Virus record (IMG/VR): IMGVR_UViG_2802429232_000009
DNA length: 17,274 bases
Source: a virus
Lineage: Duplodnaviria > Heunggongvirae > Uroviricota > Caudoviricetes
Direction: 5' to 3' (one strand)
Numbering within the stretch: position 1 is the stretch's first letter; every line of letters begins with the position of its first letter. The notes under the pieces were generated by a model, which saw nothing but the letters and a program-made list of their open reading frames with translations, did not search any database and had not been told where the DNA came from. Below are positions 1,153 to 17,274 of this stretch, in pieces. Both the position numbers and the translations under genes were made by a program.

Positions 1153-1638
1153 GACGTATTATCCTTTCTATTGTTATTTTGCGTTATTGAATTTTTATAA
1201 GCAAATGAGGAATCAGTGTATATGCATAGTATGTGAATGTTATCCTACTTAAGCCTCTATCTTTATGGTGTGCCAGCGGCAACGTGTTATCTGACTCATT
1301 TTTATTAGTGATAACCTTACTTTTCCAGAGGAGTGAGATAGTAAACACGCTGTTTCCTCGCATCGTCTATGAGGGTATCAAAAGGACAAACTATATTTGA
1401 AGTGATTTATAACGCAATATATTTATGTTTAAAAATCACTTTTTATTCTTCGCGTGAATGTTTTGTTTGGGACAATATTTTTTATAAATATGTTATAGTC
1501 TAATTCTATATAGCCAAGCGGAATAATTCTCCATTTTCGGTCAGACCTTTCGGGGTAAGGCGCAGAAGCCATTTTCTCTGTCTGACTGTGCTTGCACCGG
1601 GGAGGTGTCCGTATAGGCTATTTAGCGTATATAAGGAA

Positions 1639-1655
1639 CCGGGCATTGTGCCCGG
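1639..1655 (-). terminator. Perfect hairpin (CCGGGCA-TTG-TGCCCGG) 6 nt past the last tail-operon stop; candidate operon-end terminator
   Basis: 7-bp perfect stem with 3-nt loop read directly. On the minus-strand RNA it is followed by UUCCUUAUAU, only moderately U-rich, so termination efficiency is uncertain. Confidence 0.4.
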
Positions 1656-1661
1656 TGTGAT

Positions 1662-2117: not shown

Positions 2118-2821
2118 GGTTGCCAGCCTGTGGAGTAATCGTAGTCGAGCACCGCCTGAATATCGTCCAGTGCTTCCACCGCCGCGATATGGTGCTGAGC
2201 GTTGGCGAATAAGCGCATATCGTGATCCATTGTTACCGATTCAAACTGGGCGGCGATTTCGTTGGTTAACTCGATCAGACCGTTATTTTTAGTTTTCCAC
2301 ATTAAACCTGGTGGAATTTTTTTCTCCGCTCCCATTTTTGTGAGTGAGATCTGTTGAATTCGGCTGTTTGTATCACTGTGGAAGTGATGGTCGTTGATGA
2401 TGATGTAGTTGGTTGTGATGGTATCGCGTTGATTTTTGATTGCAGAGTATTTCGCCTCTTTAGCATCGGTTATAGATGGTTGCCATTTTTCACCATCCCA
2501 ACGTTCAAAAGAACCTGATGGGGCAATGATGGTGACAGTTTCAGGTAATTGACCCAATTCTTGAATAATAAGCTGGCTACCATCAACTTTGTTATAAACA
2601 GTTTGCCCGCGATGATCTTCAATGTGCTCCCATTTTTCATTCACCCAAACAGGAGTAAAACCTGAAACCTTTTCGGGTGGTGAATTTAATGTGCAATGAT
2701 TTGGCAAACCTGTATTAGGTGCAATGTATGCATCAGACTCACCGATATATTCTTGGGTGTCTTGTGAAAAATTATAAACAGTCAGTATTTGAGCTTCATC
2801 GGAAAATGTAAAAGTATTCAT
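2114..2821 (-). CDS. Tail fiber assembly protein / chaperone (Tfa, Mu U / P2 G family), 235 aa
   Basis: Immediately downstream of the tail fiber gene with an ATGA start/stop overlap at 2818..2821. The N-terminal region has the Tfa-type pattern ([17 protein letters not shown] ... [10 protein letters not shown] ... WDGEKWQ); the C-terminal 100 aa are divergent. GAGG Shine-Dalgarno present. Confidence 0.8.
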
Positions 2822-4443
2822 GCTAGCCTCACAATATAATTGAATGCGATATTTTTAACGGTGTTTTCGGTATTGCCGGTATTATTAATGGTTATAGAGT
2901 GATTATGGGCCCCAAGTGGAATTGAATGTGAATGGGTACCAATTGAAAGTTCATGTGTATGGCTACCCAATGCGATAGTATGTGCATGGGTACCAATGGC
3001 TGTAGTATGAGAGTGATCACCTACTGCATCGGTATTAACAAAATCATAACGAGAGTCACCGATAGAATCAGCGGTTAGTGCATTGCCACCGTAATCAGCA
3101 TCACCTTTACATGTTATTTGATGTGAATGGCCACCTGTGCTGGTCGACGATTTACTTCCGTGATTGAACGACGATGTTGTCTTAGAGCCAAGATCAGAGG
3201 CAGATACCGTTTTGTTTCCAAAATCAAAAGATGATGTTGCTTTTGTCCCTAAATCCGTACTAGAAATACTGCCCGTATGGTTGTGCGATTTAACCCCATC
3301 CAGTTCAGTAGATAATATATTACGCCCACTGCTGGTTTTCCCTTTAATTATCCATCCACGCATATCAGGGATGACGCCAGACGGATATGCAATTGCCAGT
3401 TTGGGATATGAGGCTTTATTAAATGTCTGACCTGTCATCAGGGCGTAGCCAGAAGGTACAGAATCAGACGGCCAAGGAATAGGCATCCCTACAGGGCAGC
3501 TTTCCGCAGCACTAGCCTTATCATACGCCGCCTTCACCGCACTCGGCGTAGCCGCCTCCGTCGTACTGTTGCTATCCGTCGCATTACTAAGCTTCACAAT
3601 CCCTTTTTGTGTCAGGGTGCCGTCCGGAATACCCGTAATCTGCCCCCAGGGGTGTGTATGACTACCCGCAGCCTTACCGTTCGCCAGGTCATACGCCGCC
3701 TTCACCGCGCTCGGTGTCGCCGCCTCTGTCGTGCTGGTGCTATTGGTCGCATTATTAAGCTTCACAATCCCTTTTTGCGTCAGCGTACCATCCGGTATAT
3801 CAGTAATCTGACTCCAGGTATGACGATGATTTCGAGCCTCAATCATTGCCGCTTTCACCGCTTTTGGCGTAGCCGCTTTGGTTTCGTCATCACTGTCAGT
3901 GGCGTTACTTAACTGCGTAAAGCCTTTTTGCGATAACGTAGCATCAGGGTGATTAGTCGAACGTTCATGTTCATCCAGTTGCGAATCAACATAATCCCGT
4001 GTTGCCAGCACAATACTGGGATCAACGGTGAGCGTTACCGCTGCCGTATTGGAAACTTCCATAATGAGACGAATGCAAACTTGCTTACCGCTGCCGCCGG
4101 GTAATAGCGGTTTATACGACTCCGGGAATTTACCGATAGCAATGAGTTCACCATCGGTATCAAAAACACCGACTTCACGTACATACCAGCCGCCGATATT
4201 TTCTGGCAGTACAAGTTCCGCAATTAACCAGTTAGGATTATTAGGCGCAACTGTTAATGTATTTAAATCACCGCGCCATACTTCATGGCGTAATTTAGTT
4301 TGGCTGACGGTGGGTTCATAATATTGCCCTCCGCTGTCGCCAACAGCCATTTTTTGTAGATGAAGCTGTTTTTTATCCGCCAGGGCATTGGCAATTTTTG
4401 CCATCCCTCTGTCAGTGAGTAGAGTATAAAACTCATTATCCAT
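2818..4443 (-). CDS. Tail fiber protein (541 aa): P2 gpH / Mu S-like N-terminus, tandem repeats, His-x-His-rich C-terminal tip
   Basis: The N-terminal block ([21 protein letters not shown] ... [29 protein letters not shown] ... ATPKAVKAA) is the conserved tail-fiber N-terminal domain of P2/Mu/lambda-type fibers. Three copies of the TLTQKG-x-VKLSNAT...[13 protein letters not shown] repeat follow. The C-terminus has six HxH motifs (HSH, HSH, HAH, HTH, HSH, HNH). GGAG Shine-Dalgarno; ATG at 4443. Confidence 0.9.
3514..3945 (-). repeat. In-frame tandem direct repeats of about 168 bp (56 codons) inside the tail fiber gene; two well-conserved copies plus one degenerate copy
   Basis: The 20-mer tcatacgccgccttcaccgc occurs at 3521 and again at 3690 (period about 168 bp), with long near-identical tracts between them. 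The third, degenerate copy is around 3846..3945. Confidence 0.8.
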
Positions 4444-5078: not shown

Positions 5079-6186
5079 CGCTGACTCCGGCAATCGTGAC
5101 GTCTATCGCGGTGCATTCCGCCCACTCATGCGCCTGCAAAATACGTTTTGTGGGCATGTTCAGCACAACGTCATAGACGCCATCGACCTGCAATACTTTG
5201 ATTATCTGGTTTGGCACAATGTCCTGTCCCAGATGTGTCTGCCGCTGTTGCGTCCAGAGGCTAATCGCTTTACGCGCCGCAGCCAGCGTTGTCTCCTGAT
5301 CGGCAGTGGTAAACAGTGTGAGCTGCGCACGGATCTCATACGGCACCCTAACGGCGCATTTCGCACTTACTTTGTCGGTCAGCGGACGTTTTTTCTCCTT
5401 ACTAACCTCCAGTTCAATTTGCGCGAGCAGTTCCACGCCCGGCAGACCATTCAGCGTTAGCGGGTAGATCTCCACGCAGCCTTCTGGTAATCCTTCGTCC
5501 GGCCCCAGGACCGCAACGTCAATAATCGACTGGCTTACGGAAAGCGTATGAAAGCGGTAGGCACCATAGCTACCCGCATTACTGAAACTTTCCGGCGCCA
5601 GTTGGATCCGTTGGCGCAGTGCGTCATCACTCTCTTCACCGCAGCCGCCCGTTGAAGCAGTCAGGTTGGTTACGTTGATATCGTAATAACCAATCCTGTC
5701 AACAAGGGCGCTAATTTGTGCAGGCTGCCAGCCATTGCCCGCTTCGCCTGTTGTCAGACTGGTGGCGGGAACGGCGATATGCAAACTTCCCGCCGGAATC
5801 AGAACATCTTCATCGGTAGCAAACATCACGCTGTCAGAGGCGCTGGCTCGTGTTCCTTGGGGGATCAGGATGTTGCTTGTATACGCATTGACTACCGAAA
5901 ACTGCAACGTCGTTTTTGCTGGCTGCGCAGGTAAGCGGTGAACGCCCACCAGTTCCCCTAAATAATCCAGCATTGGCGCGCGGGAATACGCGACCAGGTT
6001 CTGTTTCGCCGCTTCCTGAATGGCGATGCGTACAAGGTTTTCACGATAGGCAAAAAGGTCAATCAGCAACCGCTCGGCCTGTGCCGGGTAGAGCTTTTTG
6101 CCGCTGGCATCTTCGTACTGCGCAATCATCTCGCTGGTAATTTGCGCAGGATCGCGGTCAATAAAATTGGGTTCGGCTATCGCCAT
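5071..6186 (-). CDS. Baseplate wedge protein, P2 gpJ / Mu gp47-like (371 aa)
   Basis: Size and synteny (gpW-like, gpJ-like, gpI-like, fiber). GGAGGTG Shine-Dalgarno; 10-nt overlap with the upstream gpW-like gene. Confidence 0.85.
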   Translation of the reverse strand: MAIAEPNFIDRDPAQITSEMIAQYEDASGKKLYPAQAERLLIDLFAYRENLVRIAIQEAAKQNLVAYSRAPMLDYLGELVGVHRLPAQPAKTTLQFSVVNAYTSNILIPQGTRASASDSVMFATDEDVLIPAGSLHIAVPATSLTTGEAGNGWQPAQISALVDRIGYYDINVTNLTASTGGCGEESDDALRQRIQLAPESFSNAGSYGAYRFHTLSVSQSIIDVAVLGPDEGLPEGCVEIYPLTLNGLPGVELLAQIELEVSKEKKRPLTDKVSAKCAVRVPYEIRAQLTLFTTADQETTLAAARKAISLWTQQRQTHLGQDIVPNQIIKVLQVDGVYDVVLNMPTKRILQAHEWAECTAIDVTIAGVSDG

Positions 6187-6536
6187 AACACCTCCGTTGA
6201 GTTGATTACGCCGTCAGCGGTGCGCCATTGCACACGTAACGTCAGATGTTCCCCGTCGATTACCGGTGTCACCTTCAGCAACCGGCAGCGCGCTTCCCAC
6301 TGGCGAATGGCCTCTACCGACTCCCGTACCACATGCGGGATCGCCCGCTCGATGGGATAATCGATGTAGTGCCACAAGTTGCTACCAAACAGCGGTCTGT
6401 GGGGATCACTGCCGCGCGGTGTGCGCAGAATGATGTGTATTGCCTGGTGAATATCATCCAGTCCGCAGACGTATTCTTCAGGCCGCTGCAAGGCGGGTTG
6501 CCAGTGCAGCGTAGAGGGGCGTGTTTTCGTGTTCAT
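6177..6536 (-). CDS. Baseplate protein, P2 gpW / T4 gp25 / Mu gp46-like (119 aa)
   Basis: Motif LDDIHQAIHIILRTPRGSDPHRPLFGSNLWHYIDYP matches the conserved gpW/gp25 core. Weak Shine-Dalgarno. Preceded by a 98-bp gap containing a terminator. Confidence 0.8.
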   Translation of the reverse strand: MNTKTRPSTLHWQPALQRPEEYVCGLDDIHQAIHIILRTPRGSDPHRPLFGSNLWHYIDYPIERAIPHVVRESVEAIRQWEARCRLLKVTPVIDGEHLTLRVQWRTADGVINSTEVLWR

Positions 6537-6597
6537 GAGGGCATTTTCGCCCTGAACAGGCGGAGGAGATATTAAAGCGGTTTAGAAAACTGGTTGA

Positions 6598-6629
6598 TTA
6601 AAAAGAGAAAACCCGCCATCAGGCGGGTT
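6598..6629 (-). terminator. Intrinsic (rho-independent) terminator for leftward transcription, inside the tail operon
   Basis: Perfect 8-bp GC-rich stem (6610..6617 pairs with 6622..6629) and 4-nt loop, followed on the minus-strand RNA by UUCUCUUUUU. Starts 6 nt after the spike gene stop (6635). Not a terminator on the plus strand. Confidence 0.65.
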
Positions 6630-6634
6630 AAAAG

Positions 6635-7336
6635 TCAGTGTGAATGGTGGTTGGAGTTGCCACCGCTGTCCTGCAATGTGCCGCTGGCCTGCACGTTACC
6701 AATCACGTTGACATTGCCGGTTATCGTGGCGGCATTACCGATGCCTCCACTTCCTGCCATGCCACCCAGCCAGGTCAGTTTTTTCATCACCGTTACGTTG
6801 CCGGTAAAGGTACTGAGCGGTGCGTCTACCGTTACAGTCATCGCTTTAACATCCACCTTACTGGCTTCAATGCTGACATCGGTGGCTTTCACATCAACAG
6901 TGTCGGAAGTCACGGTGACGTGTTGGGCTTTAACCTCAACGTTGGGCGATGTCAGGCGGGTACGGTCGATAACCTCAATCACGATTTTTTCAATGCCGCC
7001 ATTAATCGTAAGCTGGTGGGTGCTGCGGTCATATTCAAACGCTGCGCCATCGGAAAACTGGACATACCTTTTATCGCGCGATGCTACTGGCGCGGTATCT
7101 ACCGTTGAATATACTGCGCCCAGCACTACTCCATCTTCACCGTTATCATCCAGCAGAACTTCCACCTGCTCTCCCATATCCGGTAGCCAGTAGTCTTTAT
7201 TGTCCTGAGAATTGCGCTGCAGCACCGCAAGCCAGTTACTCTTCAGATTGTCACACTCTGGTAGCGTGACCCGCACCCGAACGCTGGTTTCGTCAATATC
7301 ACTGATAATCCCCGTTTGCCGGGTTACTCCTTTCAT
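6635..7336 (-). CDS. Baseplate central spike, P2 gpV / Mu gp45-like (233 aa)
   Basis: Strong AAGGAGG Shine-Dalgarno. N-terminal OB-fold-like region and repetitive beta-rich C-terminal half (VTV/VDV repeats) ending in a His cluster (NSNHHSH). Position after the gpD-like gene. Confidence 0.8.
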   Translation of the reverse strand: MKGVTRQTGIISDIDETSVRVRVTLPECDNLKSNWLAVLQRNSQDNKDYWLPDMGEQVEVLLDDNGEDGVVLGAVYSTVDTAPVASRDKRYVQFSDGAAFEYDRSTHQLTINGGIEKIVIEVIDRTRLTSPNVEVKAQHVTVTSDTVDVKATDVSIEASKVDVKAMTVTVDAPLSTFTGNVTVMKKLTWLGGMAGSGGIGNAATITGNVNVIGNVQASGTLQDSGGNSNHHSH

Positions 7337-15050: not shown

Positions 15051-15167
15051 ATAGGGTGTTCCTTAATTATTGCTGATTCGTTAACGCTTACTCCGTTATC
15101 GTTGAAATGTATTCTGACGTAGTGAAGGTGAAGGATCTTTTAATCTGCTTTAGAGAAAAAATTGAAT

Positions 15168-16390: not shown

Positions 16391-16926
16391 ACGATATCTC
16401 CTGATAAGTGAGCGTTTAGTGTCGCCAGATCCCTCCAGTGAAGAATGAAAAAAGCTTTAATAAATAACTTTAAAAAATAGATCCTCTATAAATGAACATG
16501 CTCGCTAATAAATCCACCCATTAATAAAAGAGCAAAAGGTGACCTGGCGAATAAGCGCGTCATTATGCAGGGAAAAGAGGATGGTGGATCGTAGGAGTAG
16601 TCAGTAGTTATTTGATTTTTAAAGTTTGTTTAAGAAAGTTAGCGACTGTGAGGGAAACGATCTTTTTATACTACAGGTAAAATAATACTGTATGTGTATA
16701 CAGTATCGTGTAAAATGATACTCCAGTTGACAAGAAACGTAACGCAAACAATATATTTATTTTGTGAATTTATGGTGTTCATTAATATTAAAAATTTATA
16801 TTTTTGGTGATTGTTTATTTGTTTGTTGAATGTATTGAGTAGCAGTAATGACAACTGCTTAGCGTATATCCGTGGTTTTACACGCATCGGGTCTTATACA
16901 GGATGCAAGATATATGGAGATGAAAA
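16391..16926. promoter_or_regulatory. Divergent AT-rich control region between the lysis/tail operon (leftward) and the Mor-family activator gene (rightward)
   Basis: 536 bp with no ORF of convincing coding character on either strand. Contains the LexA box below, a TAAAAT -10-like hexamer at 16711..16716, a TTGACA at 16727..16732, and three TAATAAA heptamers at about 16459..16528. Confidence 0.6.
16686..16705. promoter_or_regulatory. LexA (SOS) box: TACTGTATGTGTATACAGTA
   Basis: Perfect CTGT-N8-ACAG palindrome with the conserved flanking TA dinucleotides. Differs from the enterobacterial consensus TACTGTATATATATACAGTA only at two central spacer positions. A -10-like TAAAAT lies 5 bp to its right, so the box overlaps the -35/spacer of a candidate rightward promoter. 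Confidence 0.6.
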
Positions 16927-17274
16927 ATGATACGAAAATCAAAAGAGATGGCCCGGACACCGGAGATCATTAACGACCTGGCGTTTCATGCATCGCAAGT
17001 TCTGATTGAGAGCATCAATCTCGACAGCTCATCGGCGGAAAATGTGGGCTTTGCCATTGCTGACCGAATGATGCGTAACTGGGGGGGGCAAAGCATTTAT
17101 TTCCCGAAAGGGATCTCTGGACGGGCGTCGGAGCGTGACTACCAAATCTATAGCGAGTGCGATGGTCGCAACTACGCCGAATTAGCGAAGAAATATAATC
17201 TGACGCTGCAATGGATTTATAAGATAGTGAAACGCGTACATGCGGAAAAGCAACAGCGCCGTAGTAATTCGTAA
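16927..17274 (+). CDS. Mor/C-family phage transcriptional activator (115 aa)
   Basis: C-terminal region GGQSIYFPKGISGRASERDYQIYSECDGRNYAELAKKYNLTLQWIYKIVKRV aligns by eye with the DNA-binding C-terminal domain of Mu Mor (GGGQVYIPRG ... DFNGRNVSELTTRYGVTFNTVYKAIRRM). GGAG Shine-Dalgarno 7 nt upstream; stop TAA at 17272..17274, the window edge. Confidence 0.85.
   Translation: MIRKSKEMARTPEIINDLAFHASQVLIESINLDSSSAENVGFAIADRMMRNWGGQSIYFPKGISGRASERDYQIYSECDGRNYAELAKKYNLTLQWIYKIVKRVHAEKQQRRSNS

Follow-up and report, generated by a model that had tools for sequence, protein, structure and literature searches.

A predicted terminator and Mor/C-type promoter between the spike and gpW-like genes of a headless BcepMu-type tail cluster

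A perfect GC-rich hairpin is situated just behind the spike gene (V) in the tail gene cluster of IMG/VR virus record IMGVR_UViG_2802429232_000009, a stretch of 17,274 nt which is called the window throughout. Its position raises the question of whether the gpW-like wedge gene (W) and the baseplate and fiber genes after it are read from the same transcript as the genes before it. The W protein of the window shows 60% amino acid identity to gp49 of Burkholderia phage BcepMu and 68% identity to its counterparts in PhiKM and KP12, two BcepMu-like phages, and the gene order is that of BcepMu. On the basis of this protein identity and gene order, the window holds a headless BcepMu-type (Mu-like) contractile-tail cluster with one activator along with lysis and tail genes. 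We consider it probable that positions 6629-6536 form an operon boundary, in which a terminator is followed by a sigma-70 promoter of Mor/C type, transcription would start on the A of the W start codon, the W mRNA would be leaderless and the unit from W to the fiber would be transcribed from its own promoter and not by read-through. The boundary appears to be an ancestral operon boundary of the BcepMu family and not a break inside one operon. The features of the junction are as follows, given in the order of transcription.

6635..7336, minus strand, spike or baseplate V gene, last gene of the upstream unit (Pfam Phage_base_V, E 9.6e-8; its homologue in E. coli is annotated baseplate assembly protein V)
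6637-6635, minus strand, stop codon TGA of V
6610..6629, minus strand, terminator hairpin, with left arm AACCCGCC at 6629-6622, loop TGAT at 6621-6618 and right arm GGCGGGTT at 6617-6610
6600..6609, minus strand, U-tract TTCTCTTTTT, directly 3' of the hairpin
6585..6599, minus strand, upstream flank of the promoter, AATCAACCAGTTTTC, containing TCAA (13 nt ahead of the dyad) and a T-rich stretch
6573..6584, minus strand, dyad TAAACCGCTTTA (TAAA-N4-TTTA), proposed dimer site of a Mor-family activator, from a 23-locus alignment and a position weight matrix (PWM)
6549..6572, minus strand, spacer of exactly 24 nt, conserved in length and not in sequence
6543..6548, minus strand, -10-like hexamer GAAAAT, 6 nt before the W ATG
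6534..6536, minus strand, W start codon, with the predicted transcription start at the A at 6536
6177..6536, minus strand, gpW/gp25-like baseplate wedge gene W, first gene of the downstream unit (Pfam GPW_gp25)

The gap between V and W is 98 nt long, between the V stop ending at 6635 and the W ATG at 6536, as the initial annotation had stated, and 63 nt of it separate the U-tract from the ATG. The same annotation placed the hairpin 6 nt after the V stop; the actual distance is 5 nt (CTTTT). Its description of a strong hairpin with a U-tract between the spike and gpW-like genes was well borne out. The hairpin has 8 perfect pairs, 6 of them G-C, and ranked first among 21 terminator-like sites in a consensus scan of the window. 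RNA folding gave a free energy of -15.3 kcal/mol, compared with -6.0 +/- 2.1 for shuffled sequences (z -4.35; 0 of 200 shuffles as stable). No other hairpin of the window, on either strand, combines at least 8 perfect pairs and at least 6 G-C pairs with a T-rich tail, and 60 Markov-1 random windows yielded a single one of the same quality (about 0.017 per window). The run after GGCGGG, counting two paired T's of the stem, is TTTTCTCTTTTT, and the U-tract is broken by two C's. The plus-strand sequence after the hairpin is AAAAGTCAG; it has no T-tract, therefore the hairpin is one-directional. The d'Aubenton-Carafa terminator score is clearly positive and well above threshold in all variants of the hairpin. 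Rfam 15 gave no match anywhere in the window at gathering threshold. Like canonical Rho-independent terminators of enterobacteria, the structure combines a G+C-rich stem (6-8 bp) and a loop of 4 nt with a U-rich tail just past a stop codon, and nothing notable sets it apart from them save the two C's. By prediction, the hairpin with its tract (6629-6600) is almost certainly a Rho-independent terminator. Such a terminator alone is routine punctuation of operons and quite ordinary.

To describe the conservation of the hairpin, 39 enterobacterial loci from a scan of viral and prophage contigs were used. Eight E. coli and metagenome-assembled genome (MAG) copies carry an identical hairpin, with strain KK19-02 alone differing, by a G-to-A substitution in the pair that closes the loop. 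Thirteen distinct variants, from E. coli, Superficieibacter and other enterobacterial contigs, were each folded singly. The arms CCCGCC/GGCGGG and at least four following T's are unchanged in all 13, while the loops (TGAT, ATTCA, TCA, GTAAT, GCTAA, GCAAT, CAA, ATTAA) and the flanks vary; some lineages have an extra G-C pair on top of the stem. All 13 fold into the same hairpin, at -11 to -19 kcal/mol. An invariant stem with a variable loop is consistent with the pattern expected under selection on the stem. The hairpin differs from the elements resembling repetitive extragenic palindromic (REP) and enterobacterial repetitive intergenic consensus (ERIC) sequences which are inserted at the same site in three other loci (L003, L004 and L019). 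A 201-nt region around this site was found at a single place in each carrier genome (195 E. coli genomes), which is not the multi-copy occurrence of REP or ERIC elements, and the hairpin alone was not searched genome-wide.

The sequence upstream of W was aligned for 23 loci, from Enterobacteriaceae, Burkholderia phages BcepMu and phiE255, PhiKM, KP12, Pseudomonas phage Komp_PAO1_1 and ten Chromobacterium species. All 23 align without gaps as a 12-nt dyad, 24 nt, the hexamer nAnnAT, 6 nt (7 in two cases) and ATG. The 24-nt spacer diverges freely among them and is mostly G+C-rich, and at the other loci the hexamer reads AATACT, CAACAT, CATCAT or CACCAT. When a PWM was trained on the W sites only, its next-best matches in each genome were coding-strand intergenic sites at the starts of late operons, with scores of 17-27; in PhiKM, KP12 and Komp_PAO1_1 they lie ahead of lysis genes, head protease/scaffold (Mu I-like) genes and tail-chaperone genes. 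Random Markov-1 sequences gave at most 0.01 matches of at least 17 per genome. A PWM of the dyad only was followed by nAnnnT exactly 24 nt downstream in 13 of 15 independent non-W matches, compared with 0-2 of 15 at other offsets, and the two exceptions are the two matches that lie inside genes. The window hexamer, GAAAAT, carries A2 and T6. At the place where a -35 element would fall, only 1-2 of the six positions of TTGACA are matched, and a generic sigma-70 scan found nothing in the V-W gap. The recurrence of PWM matches, the fixed 24-nt offset of the hexamer and the lack of a -35 together indicate a class of promoters and not a peculiarity of W. A late promoter of P2 type, dependent on Ogr/Delta, was also considered for W and is ruled out by the lack of its TGT-N12-ACA element in the gap: 6530-6640 contains none, and two chance copies lie elsewhere, at 2780 and 2090.

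Late promoters of phage Mu possess a -10 hexamer and no -35, and C, which activates them, recognises an imperfect dyad whose centre is at -43.5 (PMC2582627). In the window, 30 nt separate the dyad centre from the first hexamer base downstream of it, which puts the centre at -42.5 or -43.5 if transcription starts 7 or 8 nt past the hexamer. There is strong comparative evidence that 6584-6536 is a Mor/C-type activator-dependent promoter, predicted here and conserved across four bacterial groups. This motif provides a candidate for the late promoter of the downstream unit, which the initial annotation had anticipated within 6537..6609. Mor acts at the Mu promoter Pm in like manner to C at the late promoters. 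We infer the binding of an activator to the dyad from co-occurrence and geometry alone. The promoter code, TAAA-N4-TTTA near -43 followed by 24 nt and a -10, would be modestly new as a Mor-type code of the whole family, and no open-access description of late promoters was found for BcepMu-like phages, nor anything useful on a BcepMu-type tailocin.

The upstream flank is kept in the chromosomal elements of enterobacteria and Chromobacterium and in a second promoter of the window described below, and it is not found in the phages. TCAA was observed exactly 13 nt upstream of the dyad at 6594-6597 and 15162-15165 (minus strand) and in the Chromobacterium elements (L007-L016), and it is absent in the phages. 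This tetranucleotide could be an additional promoter element, upstream of the dyad and confined to the chromosomal clusters.

The seventh base past the hexamer (6548-6543) is the A of the W ATG. The base before this ATG is C at 22 of the 23 loci and T at the remaining one; a pyrimidine at -1 with a purine at +1 is the preferred context for starting transcription. W starts with ATG at all loci examined. Pairing of its upstream sequence with the anti-Shine-Dalgarno reaches only -3.7 kcal/mol, the weakest among the confidently called ATG starts (V, -12.1; J, -10.8), in agreement with the weak Shine-Dalgarno noticed earlier. The 6-nt distance from hexamer to ATG is constant in nearly every lineage from Escherichia through Chromobacterium, a constancy that would be difficult to account for if it did not matter where the AUG lies with respect to the 5' end of the transcript. 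From these features we infer translation of W from an mRNA with no leader or almost none, which would best explain why W lacks a Shine-Dalgarno. A leaderless W would also be modestly new.

According to the open reading frame (ORF) list, the cluster is encoded on the minus strand throughout, and the gene of the Mor-family activator alone is divergent. The remaining features of the cluster, with the genes assigned from the ORF list and confirmed by Pfam, are given below.

16927..17274, plus strand, Mor-family transcription activator gene (Pfam Mor, E 7e-38)
16390-16103, minus strand, holin
minus strand, after the holin in transcription order, lytic transglycosylase
15482-15168, minus strand, small membrane protein, 104-aa ORF
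15111..15152, minus strand, second predicted late promoter, with dyad TAAAGCAGATTA, 24 nt and CAGAAT; the PWM match spans 15158-15111
15050-14595, minus strand, Gp37
minus strand, in transcription order, sheath, tube, tail chaperone, tape measure, GpU-domain protein, X and D
minus strand, after W in transcription order, J, I, tail fiber and fiber-assembly protein (Tfa)
2117-1662, minus strand, orf151, 151-aa ORF, last of the cluster
1638..1656, minus strand, terminator-like hairpin ACCGGGCA-CAA-UGCCCGGU after the last ORF, -14.2 kcal/mol, z -3.95, with a weak U-tract

The second promoter scored 21.8 with the PWM, compared with a random maximum of 13.7. It follows directly on the stop of the membrane ORF of 104 aa and precedes gp37 and the sheath gene, and it is kept in E. 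coli, Salmonella, Phytobacter and Superficieibacter (L001, L003, L005, L019). The proposed map accordingly has two tail units. The upstream unit would start at the promoter at 15152-15111, comprise gp37, sheath, tube, tape measure, U, X, D and V and end at the terminator at 6629-6600. The downstream unit would start at the promoter at 6584-6543, comprise W, J, I, fiber, Tfa and orf151 and end at the hairpin at 1656-1638, and homology to the E. coli and Salmonella elements ends at 1639, coinciding with this hairpin. The initial annotation had divided the module at the spike-W hairpin into one upstream and one downstream unit. The boundary at the hairpin was retained here, but the upstream unit is probably itself split, since a second promoter copy lies at 15152-15111. 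In the proposed mechanism, the terminator would make the wedge and fiber unit dependent on its own activator-gated promoter and would keep upstream polymerases off the activator site. Read-through RNA would in any case be a poor template for W if its AUG has to be 5'-terminal.

Other explanations of the hairpin and of the promoter region were weighed against this map. The hairpin could be a leaky attenuator or a stabiliser of the mRNA 3' end, which would set the ratio of upstream to downstream products or guard against 3' exonucleases, with the W promoter only topping up the supply. The phages of the family express the genes from W to the fiber without an upstream terminator, so that read-through together with the W promoter would be the ancestral state, and Salmonella and Phytobacter hold REP-type hairpins without a U-tract at the same position. 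REP-type hairpins are known stabilisers or partial terminators. The two C's that interrupt the U-tract also favour attenuation, but the G+C stem with four U's exceeds the terminator threshold by a wide margin in every variant. Moreover, J has a strong Shine-Dalgarno and W has none, therefore read-through RNA would serve W poorly. On balance, attenuation or stabilisation is unlikely as the main function. The hairpin could also be thought of as a neutral relic with no role in the tail cluster, for example a terminator left by a lost cargo gene or a mobile repeat. The V-W gap is indeed a hot spot of insertion, occupied in Salmonella by gtrABC and two REP copies, in Phytobacter by a REP-like and in Dryocola by an ERIC-like element; Salmonella retains what appears to be the left arm alone, ACCCCGCC, joined directly to ATCAA, and the phages do without the hairpin. 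A relic would not be expected to keep its stem and T-tract invariant while the loop, the flanks and the 24-nt spacer diverge at about 75% overall nucleotide identity, which argues for purifying selection and leaves this explanation with very little probability.

The promoter itself could be read differently as well. TAATAT within CTTTAATAT (6574-6569) could serve as the -10, with a start near 6562 and a W leader of 26 nt, and the dyad could then be a repressor site overlapping the core promoter. The key A2 and T6 are present in this hexamer, TCAACC is found 17 nt upstream of it, and the 26-nt leader could fold a small GGGC/GCCC hairpin just before the ATG. The equivalents in Chromobacterium and Burkholderia are TAAAAG or TTAAAAG, however, which make a poor -10. 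A -10 at this position would also leave unexplained why nAnnnT recurs exactly 24 nt downstream of the dyad at 13 of the 15 other sites and why the distance to the W ATG is constant at 6 nt, and the known sites of the activator family, centred at -43.5, fit the hexamer at 6548-6543 instead (PMC2582627). The use of TAATAT as the -10 is thus improbable.

Several points weigh against a terminator followed by an activator-dependent, leaderless promoter. As the arms are invariant, the stem provides no compensatory covariation, and a conserved DNA palindrome would look alike. None of the five phages examined has a hairpin at the V-W junction, so the terminator is not essential to the design. The half-sites of the dyad are short, and TAAA-N4-TTTA differs from the box bound by Mu C. 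No well-scoring PWM promoter was found ahead of the lysis genes in the window. The transcription start is predicted from the -10 spacing alone, and a start 1-3 nt off the AUG would weaken the leaderless reading. Finally, a single start-site dataset was found for a BcepMu prophage, the dRNA-seq tables of B. cenocepacia J2315 biofilm (PMC4603805 supplement 3), and it lists no start for the BcepMu W-J-I-fiber genes (BCAS0505-0508). The BcepMu prophage is presumably silent in biofilm, and the tables would then be uninformative, neither supporting nor refuting the promoter.

A wider reading joins these elements together. BcepMu-type phages and domesticated clusters would share an undescribed late-promoter code in which transcription begins on the A of W and gives a conserved leaderless mRNA; the added terminator would make this promoter the only route to W-fiber expression in the enterobacterial elements, and the junction would be a self-contained cassette boundary that takes up cargo, such as gtrABC in Salmonella, and at which entire J-I-fiber cassettes, promoter copy included, are multiplied in Chromobacterium. 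We put this forward tentatively, as a possible but rather doubtful whole.

Comparison with the phages indicates the order in which the junction was assembled. In the five phages examined, the V stop lies 3-15 nt from the dyad and the gap is 53-54 nt, and the junction of the window has about 44 extra nt, which carry the terminator. Because the phages have the promoter without the hairpin, the promoter is ancestral to the family, older and of wider occurrence than the terminator, which is a later addition in the chromosomal elements of enterobacteria. Insertions at the same place were found in three lineages. In Salmonella, a 3.3-kb gtrABC insert (STM4204-4206) lies between the V stop and the dyad, and homology to the window breaks off at 6634 and is taken up again at 6584. 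In the Infantis locus (L019, 8676-11952), this O-antigen glucosylation operon is flanked by two copies of one REP-like hairpin. The inserts of Phytobacter (REP-like) and Dryocola (ERIC-like) also lie between the V stop and the dyad. The promoter remains intact and adjacent to W in all three lineages, suggesting that it is needed in its own right. The gtrABC operon of Salmonella thus sits between two tail genes yet leaves the downstream genes joined to their own promoter. In one contig of Salmonella type (L051), just one REP-like copy is present, immediately before the W promoter. This suggests that gtr is absent there and, in turn, that gtr is gained or lost by recombination between the REP-like copies.

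It had also been proposed that a boundary at this place would allow separate exchange of the host-range end of the operon. Homology of the window to E. coli KK19-02 runs unbroken across the V-W junction, at 93% from 17274 to 3521, and no mosaic breakpoint is seen at this junction for this pair. The segment at 3521-2441 (minus strand), which takes in the fiber's C-terminal part along with most of the fiber-assembly gene, is not homologous to KK19-02, while the rest is 90-93% identical. By this comparison, host-range variation sits at 2441-3521. Separate exchange at the junction is therefore not seen between window and E. coli, but elsewhere the junction is a site of cargo and repeat insertion, and in Chromobacterium it is a cassette boundary. 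Chromobacterium elements were observed to have tandem J-I(-fiber) cassettes, each with its own promoter copy (L007 at 9926 and 13275; L011 at 642 and 9947; L013 at 9926 and 19348). These look like alternative host-range modules, and as each has its own promoter copy, the downstream unit behaves as a self-contained cassette in this genus.

The arrangement has both similarities to and differences from known systems. Mu late promoters share with the window an activator of the Pfam Mor family, a -10 without -35 and a dyad near -43 (PMC2582627). In Mu, too, several late promoters divide the lysis, head and tail genes, and one of them (PP) lies inside the tail module. PP is located inside gene N, two genes further upstream than the boundary in the window, and gp45/gp46, the Mu equivalents of V and W, overlap without a gap or terminator. 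In the window, the transcription start is predicted at the start codon. The Mu C boxes are of ATAACCCC type (promoter oligonucleotides, PMC4461284), unlike TAAA-N4-TTTA, and this difference indicates the same kind of promoter with another specificity. BcepMu, phiE255, PhiKM, KP12 and Komp_PAO1_1 are like the window in tail order, V-W gap, promoter motif and spacing, and a homologous activator. PhiKM and KP12 also contain a tandem of terminator and promoter, but after a tube-adjacent gene and not between V and W. The late operons of P2 (PP, PO, PV and PF) are Ogr-dependent, and its tail genes are in the V-G and FI-D operons, with V-W-J-I-H-G forming the baseplate/fiber operon. Unlike the window, P2 uses a TGT-N12-ACA element with a zinc-finger activator; its boundary is before V, where that of the window is after V, and its two tail operons come in the opposite order. 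A leaderless transcript may serve the first gene of the P2 V operon, a point for which no source was found.

No head, transposition or replication genes were found among the genes of the window by ORFs and Pfam. The closest relatives of the window are chromosomal elements of E. coli, present in 197 of 5,426 complete genomes (about 3.6%) at 90-96% identity and positioned between lysC and yjbD. The Salmonella element is at the same lysC-yjbD locus, and its record cross-references STM4198-STM4215. Synteny extends across Escherichia, Salmonella, Phytobacter, Dryocola and Superficieibacter at 74-80% nucleotide identity, and the divergence of the element between E. coli (L001) and Salmonella (L019) is roughly that of neighbouring genera. 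The shared site and the genus-like divergence suggest an old, vertically inherited, domesticated tail cluster of tailocin-like kind. No functional study of the lysC-yjbD tail cluster was found in the literature, and a search with the Salmonella tags STM4202-4213 and STM4204-4206 gave nothing useful. The E. coli ST131 "tailocin" (PMC9205054) was considered as the same element and set aside, as the text of that paper appears to treat a different, R2 pyocin-related prophage. The analysis offers a testable regulatory map for a widespread cluster: a single Mor-family activator, two or more predicted promoters of its type, an internal terminator and a first gene whose mRNA is predicted to be leaderless. 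The map indicates how the cluster could be switched on, by expression of the activator, and where it could be divided into modules when tail-like particles are engineered, and the promoter motif can be used as a search pattern for late promoters of BcepMu-like phages.

The Mor protein of the window shows 49% identity to gp01, the late activator of BcepMu, and 44% to the C protein of PhiKM, with a nearly identical helix-turn-helix region. It is presumed to be the activator of both window promoters. No evidence of antitermination by the activator was found in the Mu sliding-clamp paper (PMC12867686). A look-alike at 16616-16637 (minus strand), CTTTCTTAAACAAACTTTAAAAAT, was tried as a third promoter copy and rejected, as its dyad centre is 5 nt and no hexamer follows at +24. 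A weaker site, TAAAGCTTTTTT, 24 nt and GACACT, was found nearer to the holin gene, at 16421-16468 (minus strand). In PhiKM (L018), the same promoter architecture is present at 30817-30864 (minus strand), upstream of a DNA adenine methylase gene, and recalls the C-dependent mom promoter of Mu.

Beyond the hairpin at 1638-1656, positions 1-1152 of the window hold a glycosyltransferase gene unrelated to the cluster. Two of the collected sequences have misleading labels. JAEZCC010000043.1 (L002), labelled as a Bacillota MAG, carries the enterobacterial element with a W that is 98% identical, and is probably mis-binned. The first 124 positions (1-124) of IMGVR_UViG_3300050189_000002 (L050) contain a T7 promoter, a lac operator and a pET-type ribosome-binding site ahead of the W ORF; judged from these elements, this "viral contig" is expression-plasmid contamination.

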